DNA of 64,000 nucleotides. Source: Clostridia bacterium (GTDB lineage Bacteria > Bacillota > Clostridia > Oscillospirales > CAG-272). Shown here piece by piece: positions 27,564-62,007 of this stretch. The notes beneath the pieces were generated by a model. The model was not told where the DNA came from and did not search any database. It worked only from the letters and a program-made list of their open reading frames with translations. The stretch spans positions 16,842-80,841 of the forward strand of contig JAGAKG010000037.1 of assembly GCA_017625755.1 (NCBI GenBank), written 5' to 3'. Position 1 is the stretch's first letter. The number at the start of each line of letters is the position of its first letter. A program made the translations under genes and the position numbers.

Positions 27564-27699
27564 ATTTTTTTCTCCTTTCGTCGCATAGTGTCGTACCACG
27601 ATAGTATACCATTTTTGAGCTTTACTTGCAAGAGTTAATTTGAAAATGCGGTTGAATACAGCGCGGTGAGCGTGGGTGTAGATATAAGAAAGGTTATCG

Positions 27700-30550: not shown

Positions 30551-30633
30551 TTTCTTTTCCTCCAAAAGACAAGTGTGAAATAAAAAAGTGCGCAGCCGAA
30601 GCCGCGCACTAAAAATGCATGACTCCGTATTGC

Positions 30634-30759
30634 TGCGACACAATTGAATTTTTTCGCATAAGTTGTAATACACAGAAAAGTATACGAAAAAGGAGCATAC
30701 ATTTTTTTTAAGAAAAAAAGTATACTTATCCTGTGTACCTGCTATTCAATTGTGTCGCA
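30634..30759. repeat. 16-bp perfect inverted repeat pair flanking a 94-bp segment upstream of the LRR gene
   Basis: TGCGACACAATTGAAT (30634-30649) and ATTCAATTGTGTCGCA (30744-30759). An inner imperfect pair is CACAGAAAAGTATAC / GTATACTTATCCTGTG. Confidence 0.9.
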
Positions 30760-46211: not shown

Positions 46212-46212
46212 A

Positions 46213-46593
46213 ATGATGGAAGAAAATAACAAACAGAATGAAAGATTCAATTATTCTTATTCCGCTAAGCAGCAGGATGAGATAAAGAAGATAAGGGAAA
46301 GATATCTGCCCGAAAATGAGGACAAAATGGAGCAGCTTCGCCGCCTTGACTCGAGTGTGACGAGGAAGGGAACCGTGGCGTCATTGATTATAGGTATCAT
46401 AAGCTCTCTCGTGCTTGGCATCGGAATGTGCTTTGCGATGGTGTGGGAGAATTATGTGATAGGCGTTGCGATAGGCGTTGTGGGTATAATAGGCGTGTGC
46501 CTTGCTTATCCCGTGTATTCGAGTATAACCAAAAAAGAAAGGGAACGCATCGCTCCCGAAATCATAAGGCTTACAGACGAGCTTATGAAATAA
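46213..46593 (+). CDS. Small membrane protein (2 TM), paralog of 38379-38747
   Basis: It starts 1 nt after the preceding stop. YSYSAKQQDEIKKIRERYLPENEDKMEQLRRLD, two TM segments, then KKERERIAPEIIRLTDELMK. Confidence 0.7.
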   Translation: MMEENNKQNERFNYSYSAKQQDEIKKIRERYLPENEDKMEQLRRLDSSVTRKGTVASLIIGIISSLVLGIGMCFAMVWENYVIGVAIGVVGIIGVCLAYPVYSSITKKERERIAPEIIRLTDELMK

Positions 46594-46718
46594 AGAGAGG
46601 CGGATTGTACGAGGGGGACTTTTGAGGAAAGTCCCCCTCGCGCTCCCTTCAAACCTTTTTAAACAGGGGATAGGTTAACCCATTTGGATTTACAGAAATT
46701 AATATTTTTATAAGGTGG

Positions 46719-46756
46719 ACACCCCTCGGACATTTGCCTACCGAGGTGTATTTTTT
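46719..46756 (+). terminator. Probable intrinsic terminator of the sensor operon
   Basis: Stem CCTCGG/CCGAGG extended by ACA/TGT with a CC bulge, followed by ATTTTTT. A second T-less hairpin lies at 46611-46639. Confidence 0.5.
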
Positions 46757-46774
46757 ACTATATTCGTTTTGCTA

Positions 46775-47125
46775 TTTCCGCCGACACCAACGGTGTCATC
46801 CTCGAGCAAGCCGCCCCGAGATTCTTCGCTACGCTCGAGAATGACAACGGGGCGGCGCCGCGAAGGATCTGGCGGGGGTGCCGTTTGAGCGTAAAACACG
46901 CAAACGGTTATTGCTCACGAAAGCCTCCATCTTTGAGGGAGGTGGCATTTTCGCAAGAAAATGACGGAAGGGGTTTTTGTAACAAACTTCCTCGGTCTCG
47001 CATTCGCTCAACATCTCGATGTTTGCTTGCAAACTCGTTGAGCGGAGCAAACAATCTGGTGAATTGTTTACGCAGTCGAACCACGCTAAAGCGTGGTAAC
47101 GCCATAGGCGTTAGAATTTGGCTAG
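46775..47125. repeat. Mosaic hairpin repeat block (member D, the largest)
   Basis: CCGCCGACACC-aac-GGTGTCAT, GCCGCCCC...GGGGCGGC (46811-18 / 46849-56), CCTCC-atctttgag-GGAGG, GTTTGC-tt-GCAAAC, then the triple-hairpin module at 47040-47121 shared with 37418-37500. Confidence 0.65.
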
Positions 47126-47304
47126 CGAGGGGTATCGAACAGATACTTCTTTGCGTTCACACAAAATTTACAATTGCAAATTTTATAATATTACTTGAAA
47201 TAATATAATATTTATGTTAAAATTTTGTAAAATTGGGGTAGAAGGTTTGTTTTGATTGTTAAAAATAAATCACACCCACAAATGCACAAAATGGAGGCAC
47301 ACTT

Positions 47305-48675
47305 ATGGTACAAATTGACGAAAAAGTGTATGGCGTGTCGAAGGAAAGAATAGAATGTCTTTTCGATGCCGGAACTTTTGTCGAGCTTGGTGCGTACACC
47401 AGACGCCCCACCTCTTCCGAGGACTTTGAGAGCGTTGTCTGCGGCTACGGAGCCGTTGACGGAAAGCTGGTCTTTGCTTTCGCTCAGGACAGCGGAAGAA
47501 CCAAGGGAGCTTTCGGTGAGCGCCACGCAAAGAAGATTGCCGATATGTATTCGTTGGCAGTTAAGAACGGCGCGCCCGTGATTGGCGTGTTTGACAGCGC
47601 GGGAGCTGTTGTTTACGACGGAGCTTCGGCTCTGGCGGCGTACGGAAAATTTATGAAATGCGTTTCCGACGCATCGGGAATCATTCCCCAAATAGCATTG
47701 ATAGACGGTGTTTGCGGAGGTTCTTCCGCGGTGGTCGCTTCGATGTTCGACTTTACCGTAACGGTTAAGGACAAATCAAAGCTCTATGTGAATTCTCCTT
47801 TTGTGATCGGAGAGGATGCGGGAAAGAGCGCGTTTGCTGCGGCAACGGGACTGTCTGCTGTCGAGGCGGAGAATGAGGCAGAGGCGTTTGCTTTCGTTAA
47901 GAAGCTTCTTTCGGTTATTCCTCAGAATAATGCTGACGGCGTTCTCGCGGCTGACATTACTGACGATATAAACAGAGCGGTATCCTTCGATGCCGAAAAT
48001 TATAAGATAGACGAGCTTCTCGCGCAGATTTCCGATAACGGAGTGTTCGTTAGAGTTTATGAGAAATATGCGGAAAATCTCTGTGCGGGATTTGCAAGCT
48101 TTGGCGGCGTTATGTCGGGAGTTGTTGCGGTATGCGGCAAGCTCGATATATCTGCTGCAAGAGCTGCGGCGAAGATTGTTTCCTTCTGCGATAGCTTCGG
48201 TCTGCCGACTGTAACTCTCGTTGACAGCGAAGGACTTGATGTGTCTATGACGGCAGAGAGCGCGGCTTACGCCTCCGAGCTTTCAAGACTCGCTATGGCT
48301 TACACATCCTCGGATAACGCAAAGGTTACCGTCGTCCTCGGCAAGGCTTACGGAGCGTCCTTCACGCTTCTCGGCTCAAAGGCTGTGGGAGCAGACCTCG
48401 CGTATGCGCTTGAAGGCGCTTGCATAAGCGTTCTCTCGCCCGAGGCTTCTGTTGCTTTCGTATGGAACGACAAGGTTGGCGAGAAGTCCAGAGAGGATGT
48501 CGAGGCAGAGTGGAAAGAGAAGTGCGCATCTGCCGCAGACGCAGCTGATTGCGGAGAGATAGACGATGTTATAGAAGCATCCGAGCTTCGCAAGAGAATA
48601 TGCGCCGCGCTTTCTATGCTCGCGCTCAAGGCAGACGGAACGCCCGCACGCAAGCATACAGTAATGCCTCTTTGA
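47305..48675 (+). CDS. Acyl-CoA carboxyltransferase subunit (MmdA/GcdA/PccB family)
   Basis: 456 aa with a two-lobed carboxyl-transferase fold (GYGAVDGKLVFAFAQD, GAPVIGVFDSAGA, GKAYGASF). ATGGAGG SD. Confidence 0.85.
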   Translation: MVQIDEKVYGVSKERIECLFDAGTFVELGAYTRRPTSSEDFESVVCGYGAVDGKLVFAFAQDSGRTKGAFGERHAKKIADMYSLAVKNGAPVIGVFDSAGAVVYDGASALAAYGKFMKCVSDASGIIPQIALIDGVCGGSSAVVASMFDFTVTVKDKSKLYVNSPFVIGEDAGKSAFAAATGLSAVEAENEAEAFAFVKKLLSVIPQNNADGVLAADITDDINRAVSFDAENYKIDELLAQISDNGVFVRVYEKYAENLCAGFASFGGVMSGVVAVCGKLDISAARAAAKIVSFCDSFGLPTVTLVDSEGLDVSMTAESAAYASELSRLAMAYTSSDNAKVTVVLGKAYGASFTLLGSKAVGADLAYALEGACISVLSPEASVAFVWNDKVGEKSREDVEAEWKEKCASAADAADCGEIDDVIEASELRKRICAALSMLALKADGTPARKHTVMPL

Positions 48676-48690
48676 TTTGGAGGTATTCAG

Positions 48691-49122
48691 ATGAATATGG
48701 CTTATAATCTGACGAATGCCGCGCTTTCTCTCCGCGCCGACGGAACTTATGTTCCTTTTTCGGTCGAGGCTTGGAAATATGCAGGACAGATGACTCTCCT
48801 CGGAATGGGAATGGTATTTTCCGTTCTCGCGCTTCTTTGGTTAGTCCTTGCGATATTCAAGCTTATCTTCGTGGGAAAATCTCCCAAAGCGGAAAAGAAG
48901 AAAGCACCCGCGGCAGTTGCAAAGGCAGTCCAAGAATCTGTCGTTGCCGTCGAGGAGGATACAGCGCCCGTGGCAGATACTGCCGATGACGAGCTTGTTG
49001 CCGTTATCACAGCCGCAGTTGCCGCGTATATGGCGGAGGAGAACGGGGGAGTACCCGCCTGCGGATTCAGAGTGGTTTCCTTCCGCAGAGCTTGCGGCGG
49101 ACGCCCCTGGAACACGAAATAA
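48691..49122 (+). CDS. OadG-family small membrane subunit (Na+-pump decarboxylase gamma/delta)
   Basis: N-terminal TM LLGMGMVFSVLALLWLVLAIFKLI, then an Ala/Glu-rich linker, as in OadG/MmdD-like subunits. Confidence 0.75.
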   Translation: MNMAYNLTNAALSLRADGTYVPFSVEAWKYAGQMTLLGMGMVFSVLALLWLVLAIFKLIFVGKSPKAEKKKAPAAVAKAVQESVVAVEEDTAPVADTADDELVAVITAAVAAYMAEENGGVPACGFRVVSFRRACGGRPWNTK

Positions 49123-49160
49123 TCATTAAAACAAGTTATTGAAAGGTTAAGGTATAAAAA

Positions 49161-49559
49161 ATGAAAACTTATAATATCACCGTAAACGGTGTTACCTATA
49201 CTGTTGATGTTGAGGAAGTCGGCGCATCTGCCCCCGCTTCCGCCCCCGTTGCGGCTCCCGCCGCAGCTCCCGCTCCCGCCGCAGCACCTGCTGCGCCCGT
49301 TGCTGCACCCGCAGCCCCCAAGGCTGCACCTAAGGCAGCTGCAGGAGCAACCGCTGTTAAGGCTCCTATGCCCGGTACCATAAACAAGGTAAATGTAAAG
49401 GCTGGAGCTGCAGTCAAGAAGGGCGATGTTCTCGTTGTTCTTGAGGCTATGAAGATGGAAAACGATGTTTGCGCTCCCGCAGACGGAGTTGTTGCAAGCG
49501 TTGAGGTAGCTCAGGGCGCATCTGTCGAGACCGACGCGGTTCTCGTAACTCTTAACTGA
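49161..49559 (+). CDS. Biotin carboxyl carrier subunit (biotinyl domain with an Ala/Pro linker)
   Basis: Biotinylation motif EAMKMEN with a long APAAAPAPAAAPAAP linker. Confidence 0.9.
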   Translation: MKTYNITVNGVTYTVDVEEVGASAPASAPVAAPAAAPAPAAAPAAPVAAPAAPKAAPKAAAGATAVKAPMPGTINKVNVKAGAAVKKGDVLVVLEAMKMENDVCAPADGVVASVEVAQGASVETDAVLVTLN

Positions 49560-49609
49560 TTTTCTTTTGATAGAAAACACGAATTTTATTGAAAGGAAAA
49601 CAGTAGAAG

Positions 49610-50785
49610 ATGCTTGAAGCAGTAAAGAATTTTTTAAGCACAACAGGCATTGCCAGACTTATTGCGGACGATAACTGGTGGAAGACAGCCATAATGTTTC
49701 TTGTCGCCTTTGTTCTCGTTTATCTTGCGATAGTCAAGAAGTTCGAGCCACTGCTCTTGCTTCCTATCGCAATAGGTATGCTGTTGACCAATCTCCCCGG
49801 AGCAGGGCTTTTCCATCTTGATTTCTTCATTGCTGAGGAAATAAGCTTTGGACAGGTGCTTCACGATGGAGGGTTGCTTGACCTGTTGTATCTCGGCGTA
49901 AAGCTGGGTATATATCCCTCGCTTATATTTATTGGAATAGGCGCGATGACAGATTTCTCGCCCCTTATTTCCAATCCCAAGAGTCTGCTTATCGGAGCGG
50001 GCGCACAGTTCGGAGTTTTCGTCGCATTCTCGGCAGCGCTGCTCTCTGGTATGTTCACTCCTCAGGAAGCGGCATCAATAGGAATTATCGGAGGTGCCGA
50101 CGGGCCGACGGCAATACTCGTAACGAAAACATTAGCTCCCGCGTTGCTTGGCGCGATAGCGATAGCGGCGTATAGCTATATGGCGCTGATACCGATGATA
50201 CAGCCGCCGTTTATGAAGCTTTTCACGACCAAGAAGGAGCGTCAGATAAAGATGACTGCACTCCGTCAGGTATCCAAAACAGAGAAGATACTTTTCCCGA
50301 TAGTCGTTACCTTCGTTGTAGGACTTATCGTTCCCGACGCACTTGCACTTGTAGGCTGTCTTATGTTTGGTAATCTGCTCAATGTCTGCGGCGTTACCGA
50401 CAGACTTTCCAAGACTGCGCAGAACGAGCTTATGAATATCGTAACGATATTCCTCGGTATTACGGTCGGAGCAACGGCAAGCGCGGAGAACTTCCTTCGT
50501 CCCGAAACCTTACTTATCATTGCGTGCGGACTTATCGCATTCTGCATATCCACCTGCGGCGGACTTATCACAGCAAAGATAATGAACTGGCTCACAGGCG
50601 GAAAGATAAATCCCCTTATCGGTTCTGCGGGCGTTTCCGCGGTGCCTATGGCGGCAAGAGTTTCTCAGAAGGTAGGACAGAGCGAGGACCCCTCGAACTT
50701 CCTTCTTATGCACGCAATGGGCCCCAATGTCGCGGGAGTTATAGGCTCTGCGGTGGCGGCGGGTGTATTCCTGTCCTGGTTCTAA
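49610..50785 (+). CDS. Na+-translocating decarboxylase beta subunit (OadB/GcdB/MmdB)
   Basis: 391 aa, polytopic. LLPIAIGMLLTNLP and IGGADGPT are typical of the beta subunit. Confidence 0.9.
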   Translation: MLEAVKNFLSTTGIARLIADDNWWKTAIMFLVAFVLVYLAIVKKFEPLLLLPIAIGMLLTNLPGAGLFHLDFFIAEEISFGQVLHDGGLLDLLYLGVKLGIYPSLIFIGIGAMTDFSPLISNPKSLLIGAGAQFGVFVAFSAALLSGMFTPQEAASIGIIGGADGPTAILVTKTLAPALLGAIAIAAYSYMALIPMIQPPFMKLFTTKKERQIKMTALRQVSKTEKILFPIVVTFVVGLIVPDALALVGCLMFGNLLNVCGVTDRLSKTAQNELMNIVTIFLGITVGATASAENFLRPETLLIIACGLIAFCISTCGGLITAKIMNWLTGGKINPLIGSAGVSAVPMAARVSQKVGQSEDPSNFLLMHAMGPNVAGVIGSAVAAGVFLSWF

Positions 50786-50807
50786 ACTAAATGGAGGTTA
50801 CTAACAA

Positions 50808-52211
50808 ATGGCAAAAGTTAAAATAACAGAAACAGTTCTCCGCGATTCGCACCAGTCGCTTATCGCAACGAGAATGACGACGGAAGAAATGCTTCCAATA
50901 ATAGATAAGCTTGACAAGGTGGGCTATCACTCCCTTGAGGCTTGGGGCGGAGCAACCTTTGACTCCTGCCTGCGCTTCCTCAACGAGGACCCGTGGGATA
51001 GACTCCGCAAGATCCGCGAGAGCGCAAAGAACACTAAGCTCCAGATGCTTTTCAGAGGACAGAATATCCTCGGCTACCGTCACTATTCCGACGATGTCGT
51101 TGAATATTTCGTTCAGAAGTCGATAGCAAACGGTATTGATATTCTCAGAATATTCGACGCGCTCAACGATGCCCGTAACCTTGAAACTGCTATCAAGGCA
51201 ACCATTAAGGAGAACGGTCATGTTCAGGCGGCTATCTGCTATACAACAGACCCCGAGAACAAGATATATACCACAGAGTATTTCACAAATTACGCAAAGA
51301 CTCTCGAGAATATGGGCGCTCATTCTATCTGTATCAAGGATATGTCGGGACTTCTGAAGCCCTACGACGCATATGAGCTTGTCAAGGCGCTCAAGGAGAC
51401 GGTAAATGTTCCGATACAGCTCCACACCCACTACACCTCGGGACTTGCTTCCATGACCCTTCTCAAGGCGATAGAGGCAGGAGTTGATGTAGTAGACACA
51501 GCTATTTCTCCTATGGCAATGGGAACATCTCAGCCCCCCACGGAGTCGCTTGTCGCAACTCTTGCGGGAACAGAGTACGATACGGGTATCGACCTCGCTC
51601 AGCTTGACGAGATAACCAAGTATTTCACACCTCTGCGTGAGAAGTACCTCGCATCGGGACAGCTTGACCCCAAGATGCTCAAGGTCGATGTAAACGCGCT
51701 TATCTATCAGGTTCCGGGAGGAATGCTTTCCAACCTCGTTTCTCAGCTGAAGCAGGCAGGCAAGTCGGATAAGCTTATAGATGTGCTTGAGGAGGTTCCG
51801 AGAGTAAGAGCAGATTCGGGATATGCGCCTCTGGTAACACCCTCGTCGCAGATAGTCGGAACACAGGCTGTGTTCAATGTTATCGGCGGAGAGAGATATA
51901 AGATGGTAACTAAGGAATTCAAGGGACTCGTTCAGGGACAGTACGGTAAGACCCCCGTTGAGATAGATCCCGAATTCGTACAGAAGATAATCGGAGATAC
52001 CGAGAGAATCACCTGTCGTCCCGCTGATAAGCTCGCTCCCGAGCTTGACGAGCTGAGAGCAAAGATACCGCAGTATCTTGAGCAGGACGAGGATGTGCTT
52101 TCCTACGCTTTGTTCGAGCAGGTCGCGCTCAAATTCTTTGAATACAGAAAAGCAAAGAAGTACGGACTTGATTCTGAGGCGGATGCCGCTCTCGGCATTC
52201 ACAACGCTTAA
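50808..52211 (+). CDS. Oxaloacetate decarboxylase alpha / transcarboxylase 5S-type carboxyltransferase, without a biotinyl domain
   Basis: KITETVLRDSHQSL, ICIKDMSGLL, QLHTHYTSG. It ends at 467 aa with no AMKM domain. Confidence 0.9.
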   Translation: MAKVKITETVLRDSHQSLIATRMTTEEMLPIIDKLDKVGYHSLEAWGGATFDSCLRFLNEDPWDRLRKIRESAKNTKLQMLFRGQNILGYRHYSDDVVEYFVQKSIANGIDILRIFDALNDARNLETAIKATIKENGHVQAAICYTTDPENKIYTTEYFTNYAKTLENMGAHSICIKDMSGLLKPYDAYELVKALKETVNVPIQLHTHYTSGLASMTLLKAIEAGVDVVDTAISPMAMGTSQPPTESLVATLAGTEYDTGIDLAQLDEITKYFTPLREKYLASGQLDPKMLKVDVNALIYQVPGGMLSNLVSQLKQAGKSDKLIDVLEEVPRVRADSGYAPLVTPSSQIVGTQAVFNVIGGERYKMVTKEFKGLVQGQYGKTPVEIDPEFVQKIIGDTERITCRPADKLAPELDELRAKIPQYLEQDEDVLSYALFEQVALKFFEYRKAKKYGLDSEADAALGIHNA

Positions 52212-52295
52212 ATAATTAAACTCGAAGCTGTGTTTGCGACCGCAAACACAGCTTTGGGTGCGTTTTGGAGTATTTATCGTAAATGGAGGATAGTT

Positions 52296-53639
52296 ATGGC
52301 TCGTGATTTGACGGTCGGAAAGCCGTCGAGCGTTCTGCTTAAATTTTGCCTGCCGCTTTTGGGAAGCATTATATTTCAACAGCTATACAATATAGCCGAT
52401 AGCTTCGTCGCGGGTAAGTTTATCGGAGAGAACGCTCTGGCGGCAGTTGGAAACAGCTACGAGATAACTCTTTTGTTTATCGCGTTTGCCTTCGGTTGTA
52501 ATATAGGTTGCTCGGTTATAGTTTCAAGACTTTTCGGGGCTAAGAAATATAATGACCTCAAGACCGCGGTTTATACGACGCTTATATCGAGCGCGGTGAT
52601 TTGCGCCGTTCTCGTGGCGGTCGGATATTTCTTCGGTAGCTCCTTGCTTTCGCTTATAAACACCCCCGAAAATGTCTTTGCGGATTCCTTGCTGTATCTG
52701 AAGATATATGTTCTGGGCTTTCCTTTCGTGCTTTACTATAATGTCTCCACGGGAGTTTTCTCTGCGCTTGGAGATTCCAAGACACCCTTCGTTTTTCTCG
52801 CTTGCTCGTCTGTCGCAAATATTGCGACGGATATACTCTTTGTCACCGCATTTGATATGGGCGTGGCGGGAGTTGCCTGGGCAACCTTTATATGTCAGGG
52901 CGTGAGCTGCGTGTTGGCGGTGATCTTTGTTATGAGAGCACTCTCCAAAATAAAGACAGAGGGAAGGGTACGCCCCTTTTCCTTCCACCTACTCGGGCAG
53001 ATATCGGCTGTTGCCGTGCCGAGTATACTCCAACAGAGCTGTGTTTCGGTTGGAAATATAGTTATTCAGGGAATAATCAATTCCTTCGGCTCGGGCGTTA
53101 TGGCGGGATATTCGGCGGCGATAAAGCTTAATAACCTCGTTATCACATCATTTTCTGCGGTCGGAAACGGAATGTCGAATTACTCGGCTCAGAATCTCGG
53201 AGCGGGAAAGAAGGAGAGGATCAAGAGCGGAGTTGGCTCGGGATTTCGAATGGTCTGGGTGCTGTGCGTGCCGCTTGTCATACTCTATTTCTTCTTTGGA
53301 AAATACCTGATATACGCCTTTCTCGACACTCCGAGTGAGGCGGCGATGTCAACGGGAACAGATATACTCAGAATACTCTCGCCCTTTTATTTCTTCATAT
53401 CCATGAAGCTGGTCTGCGACGGTGTTTTGCGAGGAGTCGGACGAATGAGGGATTTCGTTATAGCCACATTTACAGACCTCGTTCTTCGCGTGGCGCTCGC
53501 AAAGATACTTTCGGACTTTTTCGGCTCTGTCGGAATATGGCTTGCGTGGCCTATCGGCTGGATCATCGCAACGGCAATGTCGATAATCTTCTGCCGCAGG
53601 TGGATAAAAAAGAAGGAGCTTTCGTCACAGAGCCTATAA
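52296..53639 (+). CDS. MATE-family efflux transporter
   Basis: ATG 52296 after a GGAGGA SD. LKFCLPLLGSIIFQQLYNIADSFVAGKFIGENALAAVG and 12 TM segments. Confidence 0.9.
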   Translation: MARDLTVGKPSSVLLKFCLPLLGSIIFQQLYNIADSFVAGKFIGENALAAVGNSYEITLLFIAFAFGCNIGCSVIVSRLFGAKKYNDLKTAVYTTLISSAVICAVLVAVGYFFGSSLLSLINTPENVFADSLLYLKIYVLGFPFVLYYNVSTGVFSALGDSKTPFVFLACSSVANIATDILFVTAFDMGVAGVAWATFICQGVSCVLAVIFVMRALSKIKTEGRVRPFSFHLLGQISAVAVPSILQQSCVSVGNIVIQGIINSFGSGVMAGYSAAIKLNNLVITSFSAVGNGMSNYSAQNLGAGKKERIKSGVGSGFRMVWVLCVPLVILYFFFGKYLIYAFLDTPSEAAMSTGTDILRILSPFYFFISMKLVCDGVLRGVGRMRDFVIATFTDLVLRVALAKILSDFFGSVGIWLAWPIGWIIATAMSIIFCRRWIKKKELSSQSL

Positions 53640-53717
53640 AAGCTCAATCAATTTTATGATTGACAACACCTTGTAAGCGTATTATAATTGAGATAATTAC
53701 AAAAGAGGAGAATGCTT

Positions 53718-54245
53718 ATGAATTTCAGAGAGATTGCAGAGGCGCGTCAGTCCTGCAGAAAATACGACGCTTCAAGAGAAGTCGAGTCGGAAAAGCTCGC
53801 GGCGGTGCTGGAGAGCGCGATACTCGCACCGTCTGCCTGCAACGGTCAGCCCTATCACTTTACCGTTTGCCGTGGAGAGACGGCAAAGGCGGTGGCGCGT
53901 GAGGTCACGGGAATGGGAATGAACAAATTCGCGGCGGACGCTCCTGTTATGATAGTTATTTCCGAGGAGGATTATGTAAAATCGGCTGCGCTCGGAGCGA
54001 GAGTGAAGAAGAACGATTATCGCTCGATGGATATCGGAATTGCGGTGGCGTATCTTACCGCCGAGGCAGCGGCGCAGGGACTTGGCACCTGTATCCTCGG
54101 TTGGTTCGACGACGAAAAGATACGGAAGATATGCGGACTTGATAAGCCCGTCCGCCTCGTTGTTACTCTCGGATATCCCGCGGAGGGAGATAAGCTCAGA
54201 GAGAAGAAGCGCAAGGCGTTCGAGGAAATTGTGAGTGAAAAATAA
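53718..54245 (+). CDS. Nitroreductase-family protein
   Basis: RQSCRKYD, APSACNGQPY, and 175 aa. ATG 53718 is preferred over 53712 on SD spacing. Confidence 0.85.
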   Translation: MNFREIAEARQSCRKYDASREVESEKLAAVLESAILAPSACNGQPYHFTVCRGETAKAVAREVTGMGMNKFAADAPVMIVISEEDYVKSAALGARVKKNDYRSMDIGIAVAYLTAEAAAQGLGTCILGWFDDEKIRKICGLDKPVRLVVTLGYPAEGDKLREKKRKAFEEIVSEK

Positions 54246-54434
54246 TATAAATAAAAGGGTGTCGGACATTTTTTGACCGATACCCCTTTGCTTTGCATAA
54301 AAAAGGGCGTTTTTTACACGCCCATAAATCCATTATAGCACAGGAAAACTCGTTTGTAAAGAAAAAGTTGTGACAAATTGCAAATTTCTGCGTAATAACC
54401 AAAAAATAATTGTAAACTTTTAACAATTTGTCAA

Positions 54435-54463
54435 TTGCAAAAGCCTATAAGATGTGGTAGAAT
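54435..54463 (+). promoter_or_regulatory. Strong candidate sigma-A promoter with an extended -10
   Basis: TTGCAA (54435-40), 17-nt spacer, TGg-TAGAAT (54455-63). Confidence 0.6.
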
Positions 54464-54469
54464 ATAGGT

Positions 54470-55096
54470 GAAGAAAGGAAGGTACACTCCAATGGCAAAG
54501 TAAGAGCTTCTTCATTCAAGGGTAAAAGAAAATTGAATATCCACCATACCCGTTGAACGGATATAGGAAAGGAACAGTCCTATGAAAAACAAATTTTTCT
54601 GCTTTAACAAAAACAAAGAAGATTAAGGATGGGCTACTCCAATGAGACATTAAGTTTTGAATTTACCGTGTGAAAGTTTTAAAGTTTGAAAGGAAGAAAG
54701 ACGCCAATGGCGATATGAACCCAAATTTCTATGCAAGGGAATCTGAAAAAAACAGAATACGAGATGGTTTGAACGGGAGTCAGGAGAGAAAAACACGGCG
54801 GTGTTACGCGTTAATATAGATTTGGTGCAGGTGTGAGAGAGGTTCAAGCCGATAAAAAATCACAGATTCTTTGCAAAAAGGCTTCATTTGAAGCAAATTC
54901 GCCTTTTGCAGTACGATATGCATAAAAACAAGAGGAGTTCTCCATAGAGAATAAGAGTTGATTGTGTTTTAAGATGTGTTGAGATAGCGAAAGGTAGACG
55001 AAGAAAGAGAGGATAACAAAAGATGTTAGATATCAAGAGTGAACAGAAATAACCCTTGGTTGTGCGTATGTGCAATCAAGGGTTATTTCTTTTTTC
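54470..55096 (+). ncRNA. Candidate ~630-nt non-coding (or mini-ORF-bearing) transcript of unknown class
   Basis: It is bounded by the promoter above and the terminator at 55047-55096. There is no plus-strand ORF of 60 codons or more. It is purine-rich with many GGA motifs and three SD + ATG + two-codon modules. Confidence 0.45.
55047..55096 (+). terminator. Intrinsic terminator
   Basis: 12-bp stem AAATAACCCTTG (55047-58) / CAAGGGTTATTT (55077-88) followed by CTTTTTTCTC. Confidence 0.8.
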
Positions 55097-55185
55097 TCTA
55101 AAAAATGGGGCTGCCTAATTTTGATGCAGAAGTCGCGCTTTGGTTCTCGTCGCTGTACTTTGTAGTGCAGAGAGCCAAAGGACAG

Positions 55186-55230
55186 CTAAAAAACCGCTTT
55201 CATTATCATTTTTAGATAACAAAAGCGGTT
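55186..55230 (-). terminator. Probable terminator of the GH2 gene
   Basis: Stem AACCGCTTT (55192-200) / AAAGCGGTT (55222-30) with a 21-nt loop. The minus-strand tail is TTTTTTA. Confidence 0.5.
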
Positions 55231-55280
55231 CTTTTTATTTATTTAGCGTGTTTTTGTTCTGCACTAAAGTAAGCAGCCCC

Positions 55281-57521
55281 TTACTTAGCAACCGACATAC
55301 CATAAAGCAGCAAAGCTCTTTCGGGCATAGCGCTTTCAATAGTCACGCTTGTGAGCGCGGTATCCTTCTTGAGAGCTACCGAAAGCGTGTAAATTCTGTA
55401 ATTCTCATAGTTCTTGTCGTAAGAGAAGGTAACAGCGTTCGTGAGCGCAGGCGACATCGGGTTGATAACAGACGCCGCGTATGTGGTAACGACGGTGAGC
55501 AGCTCGATACCGTTTCTCAGAGGAACTATCTGCTCGCTTCCGTCAGAGTATCTCAGCGTCATATTTGCGCAGACCTCTCCAAACTCGCCGTAGATAGGCT
55601 GTCCGAGGCAGTAAAGCGCGTTTCCTAGGACAACCAGCTTATCTCCCGTAACCTCTGTGTTTACCGTGTATGAGGGGAAGTTTTCGCTGATTACGACAGG
55701 CTTCTTGAGGGAATTGAACTTGAGGTTTCCAATAGATGAAGCGCTCTCGGGAAGTCTTGGTCCCTTGGCAATTCTGCGGTACTTGCGGTGATAGAATATT
55801 CCGCGGCTCGCCTTGGAATCCTCGGTTGCGAGTCTCCAAGCCTCTTTCTGCTCCTCGCAGTCGGGATATTCGAGCGCGATAGCCTCGGAATTGAGGACAT
55901 TCGTTGCTGCAGTCGTGTGAACTATCATCTCCGAGGGAGCTGTGGGCTTCGTGTTAAGCTCTCTGATAAATTTCTGATATGCGTAGTAATTTATCTTAGG
56001 CTTGCGGTCGACAGTAACGAGACCCTCGTTCTGTATACCGTCAACGCAGCAGTCGGAATCACGGTTGAACTCATACATATCTGCAAACGCCCAATAGAAC
56101 ATACCCGCAAGCATATCCTTGTCACGCGCCGCCTTCATTTTGTTGCAGAATTTTGTGAAGCAGGCAGGGTTGTCGGTAACATGCCAGCCCCCCCACTCCG
56201 AAAGTATCAGGGGCTTGCCAACAAATGACTTAAATACATTGTCAAGCGTCTGCGGACCGGGAGTTTTGTTCTGTGAGCCTCTGGTGACATGGTATACACC
56301 GGGACCGTAGGGGTGGAATGTGTAGAAATCTATGTTAGCCTTGTCGAACATCTCAATAGTCATTTCGGCGCACATACAATTAGCGCCCGAAACATATCTG
56401 TCGGGGTCAAGACGGCGTGTCGTTTCGACCGACGCGTTGAGGAATTCCTGCGTGAAGATACACTCGTTAAAGCTCATCCAGAAAGCAACGCAAGCGTGGC
56501 TGCGGTCACGGTGAATTGTTCTTGAAAGCACCTCAATAGCGCCCTCGGAGATAGTGGGATTACTCATATCCGACCACCACAGTCCCGACTCCTCGCTTAT
56601 AAAGAGTCCGAGACGGTCTGCCATCTCAACAACTCTCTTGTCGTGAGGGTAGTGAACGAGTCTTACGAAGTTTGCTCCAAGCTCCTTTATCATACGAAGG
56701 TCGCGCTCGATATCGGCATCGGGGAGGGTCTGTCCCTGCTCGAGAGAGCCGAGGTCGTGACGGCAGATGCCGACGAAGAAGAATGGCTCGCCGTTGAGAT
56801 AGAACTTCTTGCTATCCATCTTCAGCTCTCTGAAGCCGACCTTCATCGTGTATTCATCAATAGGCGCTCCGTTCTTTACGAGAAGCACCCTCAGGTCATA
56901 AAGATTAGGTGTGTTCGGCGTCCAGAGCTTTGGGGAAACAAGCGAAAAAGCAAGCTTTTCTGCCGCCCCCTTGGAGGACGCGACGACCTCACCACCGTCC
57001 AAAAGCTCAACTCGCGCAGTAATACCGTCAAGCGAGCCGTCGCAGGTCAGCTCAACGGAAGCATCTGCCCTTGTGAAGCCCTCTGAGAGCGATTGTCTGA
57101 ACCATATCTCGGAGATAAAAGTTTCAGAGCATATCTCAAGATATATCGCGCGGATAATACCGCCGTAGCAGCACCAACCGTCAACAGGACCGTATGGAGC
57201 GGTGATGTCTTCAACGAATACCTGAAGCTTGTTGCTTTCCTCAAGGTATTCGGTTATGTCAAACGAATAATGACAGTAGGGAAGGGGCGAGCCGAGAAGA
57301 TGCCCGTTTATATAAAGGTCGCCCTTGTAGTTGATACCCTCTGTTGTGAGAATAACTCGCTTTCCCGCGGGAACCGAGAGCTTGAACTCTCTGAGATATT
57401 CTGATTTTCCCGAGCAGAAGTATGAGCCAGGGACCGTACGGGTGGTGTAATCCCCGCCGTTTATGCGGAATTTCCAATCTCCGCCGAGGTCAATTCTTTC
57501 TCTGAGTTGATTTTGCTTCAT
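55281..57521 (-). CDS. Glycoside hydrolase family 2 enzyme
   Basis: 746 aa. Sugar-binding N-domain, TIM barrel with NFVRLVHYP, acid/base WMSFNE, nucleophile region ILSEWGGW. Confidence 0.85.
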   Translation of the reverse strand: MKQNQLRERIDLGGDWKFRINGGDYTTRTVPGSYFCSGKSEYLREFKLSVPAGKRVILTTEGINYKGDLYINGHLLGSPLPYCHYSFDITEYLEESNKLQVFVEDITAPYGPVDGWCCYGGIIRAIYLEICSETFISEIWFRQSLSEGFTRADASVELTCDGSLDGITARVELLDGGEVVASSKGAAEKLAFSLVSPKLWTPNTPNLYDLRVLLVKNGAPIDEYTMKVGFRELKMDSKKFYLNGEPFFFVGICRHDLGSLEQGQTLPDADIERDLRMIKELGANFVRLVHYPHDKRVVEMADRLGLFISEESGLWWSDMSNPTISEGAIEVLSRTIHRDRSHACVAFWMSFNECIFTQEFLNASVETTRRLDPDRYVSGANCMCAEMTIEMFDKANIDFYTFHPYGPGVYHVTRGSQNKTPGPQTLDNVFKSFVGKPLILSEWGGWHVTDNPACFTKFCNKMKAARDKDMLAGMFYWAFADMYEFNRDSDCCVDGIQNEGLVTVDRKPKINYYAYQKFIRELNTKPTAPSEMIVHTTAATNVLNSEAIALEYPDCEEQKEAWRLATEDSKASRGIFYHRKYRRIAKGPRLPESASSIGNLKFNSLKKPVVISENFPSYTVNTEVTGDKLVVLGNALYCLGQPIYGEFGEVCANMTLRYSDGSEQIVPLRNGIELLTVVTTYAASVINPMSPALTNAVTFSYDKNYENYRIYTLSVALKKDTALTSVTIESAMPERALLLYGMSVAK

Positions 57522-57578
57522 AGTTTTTTCCTCCGTTAGTATGAAAGCATTTTATTATAACCCAACGCGCCGTTGGTA

Positions 57579-58754
57579 TTATTCAAAGTTCATAGAGTTG
57601 ATAACGATATCCGAAACCGCGAGTGCCGCGCCGAGAGCGGGGGCGTTGAGGTCAAGCGCGGAATAGCGTACATTTATTGGCGAGCTTTTGTAGAATATAT
57701 GCTTTTGCAGATGCTCTACCATTTCGTTGCCGAAAAGGTCCTTGAATTGGATCATCGCGCCGTAAAGCACGAATGTGTCTATCGGAAGAATGTTCGCAAG
57801 CGTGCTAAGAGCAATTCCGAGATATTTGCTCATATCCTTGAAAAGTGAAACGCATATTTCGTTGCCCTCGACCGCCATCAGAGCAAGCGCCTTGAAATCT
57901 ATGTTCGGGTCGTATGGCGAGCCCGAAAGCTCGTAATATCTTCTCAGTATACCGTCGACAGAGGCATACATTTTAAGACAGCCGCGGTTTCCGCACCTAC
58001 ATATGGGACCGTCGCTGTTGACGCAGATGTGACCAAGCTCACTTATATATCCGTTCGTGCTTATCACTCCGTCTATCGCGAGTGAAAGACCGATACCCTT
58101 GTCGAGACGGAGCAGGGCAATATTGTTGATGTCCGGCTCCTTCTGGAACTCAAGCATCTTTTCTGCGACCATAATGCAGTCGGGGTCGTGCATAATAAAT
58201 GTTTTTATGTCGAATTTCTTTTCGATAAGCTCGGTAAGGCGGACATTTTCCCACTCGCTTACCTGAGGGAGATATACCGAAATTCCGTGCTCGGTATCAA
58301 CTATACCCTGAACGGCGATGCCTATTCCTATGACATTGCCCTTTTCGTCGAAATCTATCAGCTCTGATATAGCGGTGAAGAGAGTTTCGATTACATTATT
58401 GTATGTCAGCATAGTGAGAGGGTGGAAGGTCTGCTTGAGAATACCGTAGCGCAGGTCGGTCAGTACCGCGGTGATACCCATAATGTTGAGGTCGACGCCT
58501 ATGATATGGTTTATCTTTGTGTTCAGCGCGTAATAAACGGCTCTGCGACCGACGCTGCCCGTGGACTTTCCCGAGGGAACTATGAGTCCGAGCCTTTCAA
58601 GCTCGTCTACCATAGTGCATACCGAGCCCCAGCTGAGCATCGTTTTTGCCTGAATGTCGCGCTTTGACATGGGGCCATACTTGTGGATAGCAAGAATGAC
58701 TGTGTGCAAATTGTTCTGCCGTATTGATGCGGTGGTGATTATCTTTTTTGTCAT
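57579..58754 (-). CDS. ROK-family transcriptional regulator
   Basis: N-terminal wHTH (MSKRDIQAKTMLSWGSVCTMVDELERLGLI) and the ROK Zn motif CRCGNRGCLKMY. Confidence 0.9.
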   Translation of the reverse strand: MTKKIITTASIRQNNLHTVILAIHKYGPMSKRDIQAKTMLSWGSVCTMVDELERLGLIVPSGKSTGSVGRRAVYYALNTKINHIIGVDLNIMGITAVLTDLRYGILKQTFHPLTMLTYNNVIETLFTAISELIDFDEKGNVIGIGIAVQGIVDTEHGISVYLPQVSEWENVRLTELIEKKFDIKTFIMHDPDCIMVAEKMLEFQKEPDINNIALLRLDKGIGLSLAIDGVISTNGYISELGHICVNSDGPICRCGNRGCLKMYASVDGILRRYYELSGSPYDPNIDFKALALMAVEGNEICVSLFKDMSKYLGIALSTLANILPIDTFVLYGAMIQFKDLFGNEMVEHLQKHIFYKSSPINVRYSALDLNAPALGAALAVSDIVINSMNFE

Positions 58755-58806
58755 AATATACCTCTAAATTTAAAACTGTGTTTTTTGTATCCTCGTGGAT
58801 ATACCG

Positions 58807-58828
58807 TTATGTGAAATATATCACATAA
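58807..58828. promoter_or_regulatory. Palindrome TTATGTGA-N6-TCACATAA (candidate operator)
   Basis: Perfect 8-bp arms in the divergent ROK / lipoprotein intergenic region. Confidence 0.3.
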
Positions 58829-59006
58829 TGATAAAATTGTCAATGATTTTTATCAAAAAACTCAAAAAAACATTTTTTTAATATATCATTTTGCGTTTTT
58901 AAAGTTGAATTTGATATAATAGTTGGTTTTGCACGAACGACTTTTCCTAAAAAAGAGACTGGATTTTGTGAAATGCTCCAAAAAAGCTCAAAGATTGAAA
59001 ATGTTA

Positions 59007-59035
59007 TTGTGTTTGTTTTGCATATGTGATATAAT
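59007..59035 (+). promoter_or_regulatory. Candidate promoter for the lipoprotein operon
   Basis: TTGTGT (59007-12), 17 nt, TGa-TATAAT (59027-35). Confidence 0.4.
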
Positions 59036-59156
59036 ATAGCCGAGGACTGTTGGTTATTTGTCCGTTTTTAACGCCTTAATAATATCAATTCTTGATACAA
59101 TTGAGATTAATTTACAGCGTTACTTACAAATTCTAAAAAAGGAGAGTGATGGAATT

Positions 59157-60668
59157 TTGAAGAACAGATTTCTCAAAATTACTGCAATTCTTCTCGTCTT
59201 TCTAATGCTTATGTCTTTGTGCATTTCGTGTAAGAAAACAGAAGAAGAAGAAGAGGGAGAGGAGACGACCGTTTCAACCGTAGAGGGTGAGACATACCGT
59301 GACGACCTTCCCAGAGATCTTAACTACAAGGGTGCCGATGTTAACTTTGTATCCAGAGCACACGACTGGTATAAGAACGAGGTAACCGTCGAGTCCGACA
59401 ACACCGACGACATCGTCAACGAGGCGGTTTATAACCGTGAGAAGGATGTTGAGAAGCGACTCGGCATCAATATCATCAACACGATGCTTGACGACGGTGG
59501 AAAGACGGGCGAGGAGGCTTATGCCCGTGTTACCGAGCAGGTAAAAATGGATGTAACCACGGGAACAGGACTTTACGACATCGCTATTAACAATATGTAT
59601 CATACGATGGGCGTTGCGTCCGAGGGCTTCCTTTACAACCTTTATGATGTTCCGAATATAGACCTCACAAAGTCTTATTATTCGCAGAACTACAATTTCA
59701 AGGGTACAATAAACGGCAAGCTTTACACCACAACGGGTGATGCTTCCCTTACATTTATCAAGTTCGCCTTTGTAACCTTCTTTAACAAGGAAATTGCAAA
59801 TGCCAACAAGATTCCCGACCTTTATCAGACTGTTCTTGACGGAAACTGGACAATAGGCTATCAGAAAGAGCTTATCGCGGGACTCTATGACGATATCGGA
59901 ACAGAGACCGATGTAAAGGACGAGGGAGATGCGTACGGACTTGTTATGAACCCCGTTACCGCTATCGACCCCTACTGGAGCTCGTTCGACCTCTCCATTA
60001 TCTCGATGGATGTTGAAGGAAAGCTCTTCCTTGACTGTGATACCGCAAAGGCGTCCACTGTATATAACCTTATATATGACCTTGTATACATCAACCCCGA
60101 TGTATATTGTGCTCCTCACCAGTCGGATGACGGAGAGTTTGCGACCCAGGCAAAGATGTTCGCGAACAATCAGGCTCTCTTCACAACTCTCAGAATGGCG
60201 TCCTGCGAAGATGCCAATATGAGAAATATGGAAGCTGAGTACGGAATCATTCCTATGCCTAAGTGGGAAACGGGACAGGATCAGTATTATTCCTACTGCC
60301 ACGACCTCTTCTCTGTATACGGAATCTCCGCAGGAGTTACAGCTGACAGACTCGAGATGGTAGGCGCTGCGTTTGAGTGCTTCTTCTCCGAGAGTGACCA
60401 GTGCCGTTACAACCAGTTTGAGGTTGCCCTCAAGGTTAAGTACCAGAGCGACACGAGCGCAGGTCAGATGCTTGACCTCGTTGTTGACAATGTCAAGATA
60501 GACACAGGTTGGATCTATTCCAAGTCTGTTAACAAGATAGGTCTTATTATGCGTGAGCTTATTACCGCAAAGCTTAGCGGTGTATTCAAGAGCAAATGGG
60601 ACGGAAATACTATCAAATACAACAACGCGATAGACGCTCTCGAAGCAGAGTTCGGAATTGTTGATTAA
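59157..60668 (+). CDS. Large extracellular solute-binding-protein-like lipoprotein
   Basis: TTG 59157 is 10 nt after an AAGGAGAG SD. Lipoprotein signal LVFLMLMSLCISC, then an acidic linker. The ~500-aa size and composition resemble family-1 sugar SBPs, but this assignment rests on resemblance only. Confidence 0.55.
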   Translation: MKNRFLKITAILLVFLMLMSLCISCKKTEEEEEGEETTVSTVEGETYRDDLPRDLNYKGADVNFVSRAHDWYKNEVTVESDNTDDIVNEAVYNREKDVEKRLGINIINTMLDDGGKTGEEAYARVTEQVKMDVTTGTGLYDIAINNMYHTMGVASEGFLYNLYDVPNIDLTKSYYSQNYNFKGTINGKLYTTTGDASLTFIKFAFVTFFNKEIANANKIPDLYQTVLDGNWTIGYQKELIAGLYDDIGTETDVKDEGDAYGLVMNPVTAIDPYWSSFDLSIISMDVEGKLFLDCDTAKASTVYNLIYDLVYINPDVYCAPHQSDDGEFATQAKMFANNQALFTTLRMASCEDANMRNMEAEYGIIPMPKWETGQDQYYSYCHDLFSVYGISAGVTADRLEMVGAAFECFFSESDQCRYNQFEVALKVKYQSDTSAGQMLDLVVDNVKIDTGWIYSKSVNKIGLIMRELITAKLSGVFKSKWDGNTIKYNNAIDALEAEFGIVD

Positions 60669-60721
60669 AACACGGTTTTCTTCATTATTGTAAATAATAA
60701 CGGTTAAAAGGAGGAACTATT

Positions 60722-61846
60722 ATGAAAAAAATATTGGCTATAACATTATCATTGCTGTTCATACTCACACTTATGACAGCGGCAATCGGCGCTACTGACG
60801 GTGGTGACGGCGTAGGCGACGAATCGGGCGAACTCAGCACCACAATAGACACCAACAATCAGGAACCCTCATACCTTCCTACGAACATCAACGGTGAAGC
60901 TACATACGCATACAAGTCTGTCGTAAGCTTTGACGAAGATGATATCGCAGGCAGACTTCAGCCTCAGACGAACCAGCAGAACAACCGCCCCCGTTGCGCG
61001 TGGGAAATCGTTGAAACAGGCGGTGCTAACGGAAAGGCGCTCAAGATGGTAGCTAACGGAAACACCGCAGAGGGTAACATAGACCTTGGCGGAGTTCAGG
61101 ACTGGAGCAAGTGGGACGGTCTTATGGTTTATGTAGATATGTCCGGCGTTATTCCGAAGGATGGCAAAGCAGGTAAGGGCGGTATAGGTATAAGACTTAC
61201 CTCCGCGCTTTACGATAAGGGTATCTTTGCTTGGACAAGAAACGGCAACCCCAACGCAAATGTTGCTGAGATTCCCGGATTTGAGATAAACGCTTGGTAT
61301 CTTGTTGACGGAAGCTGGGTAAAGGCTGATCAGGCTGCTATGGACGGTGAGAGAATCCAGGTTCCCGAGGATTTCGCGGGCTGGGTTTACATTCCCTTTA
61401 CAAGCTACATAACGATACAGGGCTCCGAGGGTACTCCCGAAGGTGGCGTATACCAGTCTGAGTTCATCAATAAGATAATGCTCCTCAGCGGACCTTACAC
61501 ATTTGCTGATCCCGCAGACGGCGAGGAGAATACATCTGTGGTTATCGTTGACGAGATAAACCTCGTTAAGCTCGGCGTAAACAACGAGGAGATGGAGGAG
61601 ATACTCACGGCTACCGAGGCAACAACTACCGAGGCAACGACCGAGAAGCGCCAGAAGGCAACTATGCCCACAACCGCTGCAAAGACCAACGCTAAGACGA
61701 CTGCCGCAGGCGCAGCAGATGAAACAACTGCTGAAGCTGAGGAGGAGAAGAGCGGCTGCGGAAGCACGATTACCGTTGCATCGGTTATGATGATCGCGGC
61801 AGCTGCAGCAATTCCCGCAGTAGCATCTAAGCGCAGAAGAAAGTAA
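60722..61846 (+). CDS. Secreted CBM-like protein with a Thr/Ala linker and a C-terminal SGCGS + TM + KRRRK tail
   Basis: Signal peptide MKKILAITLSLLFILTLMTAAIGA, a ~250-aa Trp/Gly-rich beta-type domain, TEATTTEATTE linker, then SGCGSTITVASVMMIAAAAAIPAVASKRRRK. Confidence 0.75.
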   Translation: MKKILAITLSLLFILTLMTAAIGATDGGDGVGDESGELSTTIDTNNQEPSYLPTNINGEATYAYKSVVSFDEDDIAGRLQPQTNQQNNRPRCAWEIVETGGANGKALKMVANGNTAEGNIDLGGVQDWSKWDGLMVYVDMSGVIPKDGKAGKGGIGIRLTSALYDKGIFAWTRNGNPNANVAEIPGFEINAWYLVDGSWVKADQAAMDGERIQVPEDFAGWVYIPFTSYITIQGSEGTPEGGVYQSEFINKIMLLSGPYTFADPADGEENTSVVIVDEINLVKLGVNNEEMEEILTATEATTTEATTEKRQKATMPTTAAKTNAKTTAAGAADETTAEAEEEKSGCGSTITVASVMMIAAAAAIPAVASKRRRK

Positions 61847-62007
61847 TTTGAAACACGGTTAAAGCCCACCGATTTTTCGGGTGGGCTACCGTAGCCTAAT
61901 GAAAAAATAAAAAAGCAGGCTTTTTGCGGATCTTTCGCAGAAAGAAAAATAATTAGATCGAGCGGAGGGGTTGTCCTTTGCGGCAGCCCCACCGCGGAAT
62001 AGAGCGT

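Follow-up and report, generated by a model that had tools for sequence, protein, structure and literature searches.

The window analyzed here is a stretch of 64,000 nucleotides from contig JAGAKG010000037.1 (positions 16,842 to 80,841) of the Clostridia bacterium assembly GCA_017625755.1, and the subject of this report is an RNA gene with several very short open reading frames (mini-ORFs) that lies in the 1,035 nt separating a nitroreductase-like gene on the plus strand (end 54245) from a convergent GH2-like gene on the minus strand (55281-57521). Over 54350-55099, the G+C content is 33-39%, compared with ~50% in the flanking genes, and both the GC skew (+0.13 to +0.33) and the AT skew (+0.08 to +0.27) are positive, which bears out the purine richness noted in the original prediction, a reading of the sequence that had proposed at this place an independent promoter-to-terminator unit without a long ORF. 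The promoter scan recovered the proposed promoter, no plus-strand ORF between it and the terminator exceeds 49 amino acids, and the sequence and terminator scans confirmed that the two neighboring genes possess hairpins of their own. The terminator is present as well, but instead of the suggested 12-bp stem (55047-55058 with 55077-55088) it comprises 20 pairs within 55046-55089, followed by TTTTTTC. Three features had been overlooked, namely a 9-codon ORF (55023-55052), a divergent promoter with a micro-transcript (54360-54297) and conserved structured elements in the RNA body (Table 1).

Distribution and transcription of the RNA gene family

The exact 20-mer of the 3' core of the unit (AAGATGTTAGATATCAAGAG) occurs in at least 120 species-representative genomes, and a pattern that leaves codons 2-6 of the 9-codon ORF free occurs in at least 120 metagenome contigs, so that the region is far from devoid of conservation. 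The listed genome matches are nearly all metagenome-assembled genomes (MAGs) of Acutalibacteraceae, Oscillospiraceae, Ruminococcus, Ca. Fimenecus, Monoglobaceae and other groups; this is a large family, found mostly in Oscillospirales-type gut Clostridia. A profile built from window positions 54322-54530 finds the promoter and the 5' block in ~115 of the 120 listed loci, ending 140-560 nt upstream of the core, and the promoter is kept there in the form TTGAAA/TTGCAA-17-TGnTATAnT. Measured from the predicted start to the T-run, the family transcripts span 159-666 nt (median ~410). The RNA in the window (~625 nt) and that of its closest relative among the matches listed, the 83% identical locus L069 from a roe-deer caecum MAG, are among the longest members because their 5' module has been multiplied.

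All-against-all clustering of the flanking ORFs yielded no conserved partner gene (the best cluster, a generic ABC ATPase, covers 18 of 121 loci), and of the genes next downstream, 45 are co-directional with the RNA and 40 convergent; the unconserved neighbors and the mixed downstream orientation point to a stand-alone gene rather than a leader. No family of Rfam 15 (OLE, ROOL, GOLLD, raiA, 6S, SRP and RNase P included) matched the whole window or 10 other members at the gathering score, so the family is absent from this collection, and at E-values up to 10 the best scores within 54200-55300, on terminator hairpins, were at most 20 bits. ARAGORN detected no tRNA or tmRNA gene in the window, in agreement with the predicted lack of tmRNA hallmarks; a tmRNA is rejected also on the ground that the ORF has its own Shine-Dalgarno (SD) sequence and AUG. 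A phage or mobile origin was likewise rejected, with no match in 50,697 phage records and the 21-mer absent from IMG/VR. Neither the peptide strings nor a description of the family turned up in the searchable literature.

The sequence is present in four gut metatranscriptome runs, all of which are stored as unstranded contigs. These contigs cover 54487-55025 at a word depth of 5-12 in all four runs, compared with 0-2 for the flanking genes, and stop at the terminator; within window positions 1-40000 and 44001-64000, the RNA locus alone yields full-length contigs in every run, at 97% identity or more. The RNA is far more abundant in gut metatranscriptomes than any neighboring mRNA, and the contigs, together with the absence of conserved neighbors, back the proposed independence of the transcription unit. 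Furthermore, there are hundreds of further RNA contigs, with typical lengths of 250-500 nt, that match only 55002-55050, the point at which they end, with a summed depth of up to ~110,000; the 3' end is therefore an ultra-conserved module common to many very abundant RNAs of the same communities. In a second family member, L123, coverage is confined to the RNA in two RNA libraries. L123 and ~40 near-identical metagenome loci (L124, L127, L130 and others) belong to a GC-rich organism of the human-gut type with the peptide MLDNKSEQK, and L123 is seen again in numerous human-gut assemblies as well as in wastewater RNA libraries of low depth, which suggests that its RNA is very abundant in that species, too.

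We are highly confident that the locus belongs to a genuine, expressed and conserved family of mini-ORF RNA genes. A chance arrangement or a decayed pseudogene in an AT-rich spacer, to which the low G+C content and the lack of a long ORF would lend themselves, is refuted by the conservation in at least 120 species with defined blocks, by covariation and by high expression, and its probability is negligible.

Table 1. Features of the RNA gene and its upstream region, in window coordinates.
Feature	Position	Strand	Basis
Divergent promoter and micro-transcript (predicted)	54297-54360	-	promoter and terminator scans
Operator-like palindrome TTGTAAA-CTT-TTAACAA, 17 bp	54410-54426	.	conserved columns; Block-1 alignment, 121 hits
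Main promoter: -35 TTGCAA, 17-nt spacer, TGg-extended -10 TAGAAT	54435-54463 (-35 54435-54440; -10 54458-54463)	+	promoter scan; family block
Module 1: extended SD GAAGAAAGGAAGG, 3-codon ORF ATG GCA AAG TAA (M-A-K)	54470-54504 (ORF 54493-54504)	+	family consensus
Putative decayed module copy: SD-like GGAAAGGAACAGTCCTATG, then 14-codon ORF	54558-54626 (ORF 54582-54626)	+	resembles module consensus
Module 2: SD-like TAAGGATGG, ATG AGA CAT TAA (M-R-H)	54625-54654 (ORF 54643-54654)	+	same ORF in L069
Module 3: SD-like AAAGGAAGAAAG, ATG GCG ATA TGA (M-A-I)	54690-54719 (ORF 54708-54719)	+	length kept in L069
Near-invariant motif ACACGGCGGTGTTACGC	54793-54809	+	36 type A members; median 224 nt before 3' ATG, constant
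Structured 3' domain: long-range helix GCCUUUUGC (54901-54909) with GCGAAAGGU (54987-54995)	54901-54995	+	covariation
3' module: extended SD GAAAGAGAGG (55003-55012), 9-codon ORF (55023-55052) MLDIKSEQK	55003-55052	+	frame/stop conservation; RNA coverage
Intrinsic terminator: 20-bp stem and T-run; 5' arm holds codons 8-9 and stop	55046-55096	+	terminator scan; covariation

The mini-ORFs and the terminator

The three 5' modules of the window, each consisting of an SD-like sequence, an ATG, two sense codons and a stop, are present as originally described, with ATGs at 54493, 54643 and 54708, and the length of such ORFs is far beyond chance across the family. In 117 transcripts, SD-preceded ATG ORFs of exactly 3 codons number 128, compared with ~14 in shuffled sequences, and SD-preceded ORFs of 9 codons number 114, compared with ~8; lengths of 4-8 codons are depleted, and seven of the nine transcripts without a 3-codon ORF have a 2-codon one (M-X-stop, with TAA, TAG or TGA). 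Thus, the module has the defining makeup of a minigene, that is, an SD, an AUG, few sense codons and an in-frame stop. Its family consensus is aAGAAAGGgAGGtAcAgtCCAATG-NNN-NNN-TAA, and the family-wide consensus following the -10 element is ATAGaCAAAGAAAGGgAGGtAcAgtCCAATG-NNN-NNN-TAA; within it, AGAAAGG(N)AGGU occupies about positions +5 to +17 of the transcript as predicted, and every member has its 5' ATG ~18-30 nt from the predicted 5' end. Complementarity to 16S rRNA was judged against the canonical Firmicute 3' end, the window containing no 16S gene; the module SD matches this anti-SD over 10-11 nt with one bulge. The module therefore also carries the marks of a STAB-SD, an SD-like, 16S-complementary sequence near the 5' end of a transcript.

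The encoded tripeptides are variable (MYR 35, MNR 16, MEK 8 and others), and the counterpart of module 3 in L069, ATG GGA AGA TAA, is of equal length and different sequence. The stop is TAA in 119 of 131 cases, mostly followed by A, and the last sense codon is AGG in 50, AAG in 27 and NGG in 58 of the 131. Selection acts on the length and stop of the 3-codon ORFs and not on the peptide sequence, which suggests that what counts is translation as such, or the stay of ribosomes, at the very 5' end. Two or three modules are found in 18 of the 117 members, and the window contains three along with a putative decayed fourth: the 14-codon ORF singled out in the original prediction exists but is not conserved, given that in L069, its closest relative, it runs through into the next module with many non-synonymous changes. 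It was rejected as a gene and looks like a decayed copy of the module.

The 9-codon ORF near the 3' end reads ATG TTA GAT ATC AAG AGT GAA CAG AAA TAA, begins 10 nt past its SD, is the most conserved element of the unit and has the heaviest RNA coverage. Its frame closes at codon 9 or 10 in 120 of 120 listed genome loci (TGA 54, TAA 53, TAG 13), and changes outside the 20-mer used for the search are mostly synonymous (AAA/AAG 79/34, CAG/CAA 99/8, GAA/GAG 95/5, AGT/AGC 116/4). All five indel variants are in frame, and one genome locus shows a clean deletion of one codon. The metagenome scan with codons 2-6 free provides a sample without the bias of the exact 20-mer: here, all of the 120 listed matches read L-D-x-K-x, with Leu encoded by TTA, CTA or CTG and Lys by AAG or AAA, whereas position 4 varies among N, I, T and P and position 6 among S, N, T and I. 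The peptide consensus is M-L-D-x-K-x-E-Q-K, and the commonest form in human-gut-type contigs is MLDNKSEQK. In several loci, a second, diverged RNA gene copy lies close to the main one, ~570 nt upstream of it in L002 and at +1.26 kb in L020 and L047, +2.9 kb in L106 and +4.2 kb in L118. The second copies encode MKLDFKSEQK, MLDTKIEQ, MMLDNKSEWK and MMLDNKIEWK; their indels are all in frame and each ORF ends in the terminator stem. Purifying selection on the amino acids, synonymous variation and a kept frame, the signature of a micropeptide, are all found, and the ORF evolves like coding sequence. A start-codon hairpin proposed by RNAalifold (GAUGU-UAG-AUAUC) was rejected because codon 4 varies freely in the unbiased sample (AAT, ACC, ACT), which would break the stem. 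Among the three readings that had been offered for the unit, a micropeptide or mini-ORF regulatory transcript is thus the best supported, with fixed-length mini-ORFs that define the family and with conserved frames and stops.

A second of these readings, an RNA that titrates ribosomes through repeated SD-like sites, was kept as the main rival, in the form of a natural minigene RNA. Under this explanation, translating the mini-ORFs, and not the peptide, would be the function: strong SDs and ORFs of 2-3 codons would hold ribosomes in initiation and termination, or release peptidyl-tRNA (often tRNA-Arg for AGG), and would thereby adjust how many ribosomes, tRNAs or release and recycling factors are free, e.g., when growth is slow. 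The 3-codon ORFs are indeed the most over-represented feature, their duplication or triplication and their preference for AGG or NGG before TAA(A) fit, and so do the extreme abundance of the RNA and the conserved operator-like palindrome at the promoter, which suggests regulation. Short minigenes and early AGA, AGG or NGG codons cause peptidyl-tRNA drop-off and tRNA sequestration, an effect that is stronger the shorter the ORF (PMC2490762, PMC12204400). However, pure titration does not require the amino acid conservation of the 9-codon ORF, the 3-codon ORFs of one set of members that includes the window (type A, see below) often end in AAG, AAT or ACC and not in a rare codon, and minigene toxicity has been demonstrated only in Pth-limited E. 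coli. On balance, we consider this explanation rather unlikely, with a probability that is low but appreciable.

Between 14 and 16 of the terminator pairs show compensatory changes across the family, and covariation extends to the second base of the stop codon and the base opposite it (G-C 36, A-U 34). In many subfamilies (e.g., L017, L020, L029 and L048, with ..GTGTAAAGAAACA..), the hairpin is topped by the purine loop GUAAAGAA, a further AGAAA-type motif like those located 5' of both SDs; the RNA in the window lacks this loop. With the stop and codons 8-9 paired in the stem, a short ORF overlaps an intrinsic terminator, as in the leader peptides of attenuators (ermC, cat-86, cmlA, tnaC, pheL), among which cat-86 and cmlA have 9 codons, and the position of the ribosome and formation of the hairpin must interfere with each other. 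The unit could thus be a cis-acting leader in which the 9-codon ORF serves as a ribosome-dependent attenuator of a downstream gene. Unlike in attenuators, however, there is no regulated downstream gene: in the window, the downstream GH2-like gene is convergent, across the family the downstream genes are unrelated and of mixed orientation, and the RNA contigs end at the terminator, where the abundant RNA has its genuine 3' end. This alternative is largely refuted and very improbable.

RNA body, promoter region and other features of the window

The body of the RNA is A-rich and C-poor (A 41, G 21, T 24, C 14). Thirty-six members, denoted type A and including the window, share common body elements, namely the near-invariant motif, GCCUUUUGC, a hairpin UUCUC-NNNN-GAGAA, GUGUUUU and GCRAAAGGY (54987-54995). 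The long-range helix encloses the hairpin, which in the window is UUCUC-CAUA-GAGAA (54938-54951), and GUGUUUU. In subfamily alignments that were partly hand-guided, 86% of the cells of helix and hairpin are paired, compared with 37-58% with slid partners, and 27 double-sided changes were counted, compared with 8-15 in the slid controls; none of 500 shuffles reached the observed pairing. Moreover, other subfamilies, too, have a hairpin of the TCTC/GAGA type (with the variants TCCC/GGGA and TTCC/GGAA), and its median distance to the 3' ATG downstream is 98 nt. The near-invariant motif itself is probably a small hairpin, CAC-GGCG-GUG, in which L012 and L068 show a double change from A-U to G-C (CGC..GCG). 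The same segment, ACACGGCGGUGUUAC, is nearly antisense, with 8 contiguous pairs, to the universal 16S positions 1392-1406, a likeness that is probably a coincidence; a role as 16S antisense was downgraded, considering that CGC..GCG in L012 and L068 keeps the internal hairpin and would weaken pairing with 16S.

An ornate global structure was rejected. Folding of the body in the window is no better than that of shuffled sequences (z -0.04; family mean -1.3), and the minimum free energy of the whole RNA (z -2.7) is driven by the terminator. There is, then, a limited but real structured domain directly upstream of the 3' SD, and the idea of a large noncoding RNA in the class of OLE, ROOL or GOLLD, the third reading offered originally, survives only in the few local helices that covary, not in overall folding or in any Rfam match. 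A related alternative is that of a structured noncoding RNA or sponge for a GGA- or purine-binding protein (e.g., CsrA, Hfq or a KH-domain protein), with the mini-ORFs as by-products of purine-rich sites. The repeated SD-like GGA/GAAAGG motifs, some of them in hairpin loops, the near-invariant 17-mer at a fixed distance from the 3' ATG, the covarying long-range helix and hairpin, and the GUAAAGAA terminator loop conserved in many members would all be in keeping with such a role. However, a binding-site model predicts neither stops kept exactly at codons 3-4 and 10 nor in-frame indels nor synonymous substitutions, the body of many members folds much like shuffled sequence and no Rfam family matches; we regard a sponge as improbable.

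The main promoter is of the sigma-A type and conserved. Transcription from it would start near 54469-54470, which fits the starts of the locus-specific RNA contigs at 54487-54507, although not at base resolution. The conserved block reaches ~120 bp upstream of the -35 element and includes the operator-like palindrome, which is preceded by a conserved AATTTCT..AAAAAAtAA tract and lies between two promoters, its center ~57 bp upstream of the predicted plus-strand start. The half-sites of the palindrome look like those of a Rex box, although only 3 nt separate them where Rex has 4, and we note this as a likeness only. The second, divergent promoter (-35 TTTACA, 54360-54355; TG-extended -10 TATAAT, 54337-54332) is directly followed by a GC-rich hairpin (54323-54305) and a T-run to ~54297. 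Its family consensus is tATTATAtCAcA-N17-TGTcAA, the reverse complement of which is the near-consensus promoter TTGACA-17-TGaTATAAT, and a terminator-like hairpin with a T-run follows in 73 of 88 loci, ending at a median of 44 nt past the -10 element. The predicted divergent transcript is ~30 nt long in the window and 30-50 nt in the family. In L018, the divergent promoter runs into a protein gene instead of a hairpin. The divergent RNA may itself be functional, or the back-to-back promoter pair may serve the main promoter.

Elsewhere in the window, two more hairpins lie between the terminator of the RNA and the end of the GH2-like gene (55117-55238), the second of which (55186-55230) is flanked by T-runs and looks like a bidirectional terminator; weak matches to Phe_leader and rliE in this interval were dismissed as chance, with 20 bits against thresholds of 55-90. 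A GC-rich, repeat-like segment (27719-27923) between a gene for a leucine-rich repeat surface protein (27998-30673, minus strand) and a BioY-like gene (27006-27599, minus strand) is matched by short RNA contigs at a depth of 45-105 in one metatranscriptome and has no Rfam match (best E 0.68). The second RNA hot spot of the window, 24003-24669, consists of many contigs of 37-57 nt on a MsmK/MalK-like ABC ATPase gene (23991-25100) and is most simply explained by cross-species matches to a conserved, expressed gene.

Functional interpretation

The only features found family-wide are the promoter block, the 5' SD with its 3-codon ORF, the 3' SD with its 9-codon ORF, and the terminator. The 5' module resembles the 5' stabilizers of Firmicutes (the STAB-SD of cry3A and the hbs, ermC and aprE leaders) in that a highly abundant transcript carries, only a few nucleotides in from its 5' end, an extended SD (GAAAGG..AGG) at which a ribosome, once bound, would cover that end (PMC4113751, PMC5737220). 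Unlike in those leaders, the SD is here followed by a start codon and a strict, repeatable ORF of 2-3 codons, and there is no long coding sequence to protect. In minigenes (lambda bar, engineered ORFs of 2-8 codons and the two-codon mini-ORF of axe-txe), an SD and AUG are likewise followed by one or two sense codons and a stop, and AGG or NGG is frequent as the last codon. Mini-ORFs can affect stability in cis, and both the cis stabilization reported for axe-txe (PMC8708949) and tRNA sequestration of the minigene type (PMC2490762) are plausible here. In contrast to minigenes, the present gene is located on the chromosome, is conserved across an order, yields one of the most abundant RNAs and is coupled to a second ORF with a conserved peptide, and it has no known toxicity context. 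Dual-function small RNAs (RNAIII/hld, SR1/SR1P, SgrS/SgrT) are likewise abundant and stand-alone, measure a few hundred nucleotides and combine structured parts with a small ORF, but their ORFs have 26-43 codons compared with nine here, and the additional 3-codon ORFs and the lack of known base-pairing targets set the present RNA apart. OLE, ROOL, GOLLD, raiA and tmRNA are comparable in size class, abundance and occurrence in Firmicutes, and tmRNA has a frame of ~10 codons that ends beside a helix; unlike these, the present RNA has no covariance-model or ARAGORN match, conventional initiation with an SD and AUG, and modest overall structure. The individual parts thus resemble known devices; we know of no described gene that combines these devices, is defined by conserved 3-codon ORFs or has a conserved 9-residue product.

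The interpretation that we favor, with middling confidence, is a composite one, namely a very stable mini-ORF RNA with a ribosome-protected 5' module and, as its payload, a heavily translated nonapeptide. Ribosomes on the 5' module, no more than ~30 nt from the 5' end, would bury that end, and the 3-codon ORF would allow termination without the ribosome leaving the site, so that it could cycle there repeatedly. The covered 5' end would block 5'-to-3' decay by RNase J1, in the manner of the STAB-SD, hbs and ermC-type stabilizers of Firmicutes: the STAB-SD has been linked to RNase J1 (PMC4113751), and initiating ribosomes on the hbs mRNA block this enzyme (PMC5737220). Depletion of C would limit Rho loading on the long untranslated body, and the 20-bp terminator would shield the 3' end. 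The outcome would be a hyper-stable carrier for intense translation of M-L-D-x-K-x-E-Q-K, which might act after its release or while still a nascent chain on a ribosome that has reached the terminator, and the structured domain upstream of the 3' SD may modulate its translation. The amino acid conservation of the 9-codon ORF speaks for a role of the peptide, and the high steady-state abundance of the RNA, which is not a half-life, is compatible with 5' stabilization.

Several observations weigh against this composite. Codon 3 of the 9-codon ORF never departs from GAT, and ~96% of the unbiased sample have TTA as codon 2 even though this genome uses no Leu codons more rarely than TTA and CTA (2% each), which implies that constraints at the level of RNA or of decoding speed act as well. 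The fixed 3-codon length and the frequent AGG or NGG as last codon are unneeded for a mere 5' stabilizer and fit a minigene effect better. The micro-transcript and the conserved body motifs are left unexplained. Translation of the mini-ORFs is read from their evolution alone, and the transcribed strand, the contigs being unstranded, from signals and conservation. Finally, we know of no precedent for an unmodified, hydrophilic 9-residue peptide as a trans-acting bacterial product.

We tentatively propose, as a less likely but substantial possibility, that the family represents a new class of housekeeping-level mini-ORF RNA, which would either encode the smallest known conserved bacterial peptide made by ribosomes, with 9 residues, or serve, through its super-SDs and 3-codon ORFs, as a ribosome-parking regulator of translation capacity that drains specific tRNAs. 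Such a class, if true, would span the gut Oscillospirales, including abundant human-gut species. The RNA, which occurs in gut metagenomes of the ruminant, wildlife and human types, would be one of the most abundant non-ribosomal RNAs of a dominant gut order. Frames of 3 and 9 codons are, by design, excluded from gene calling and from small-protein surveys, and the ultra-conserved 3' module is a strong marker that inflates the "unknown" reads in gut and wastewater RNA libraries. As pure speculation, the formyl-Met-Leu starts could mean that a large share of the formyl peptides encountered by the host stems from these products. More generally, the family could offer a natural test case for the functions that very short ORFs have of their own, for the ways in which Firmicutes build hyper-stable RNAs, and for the physiological use of minigene-type sequestration of tRNAs and ribosomes.

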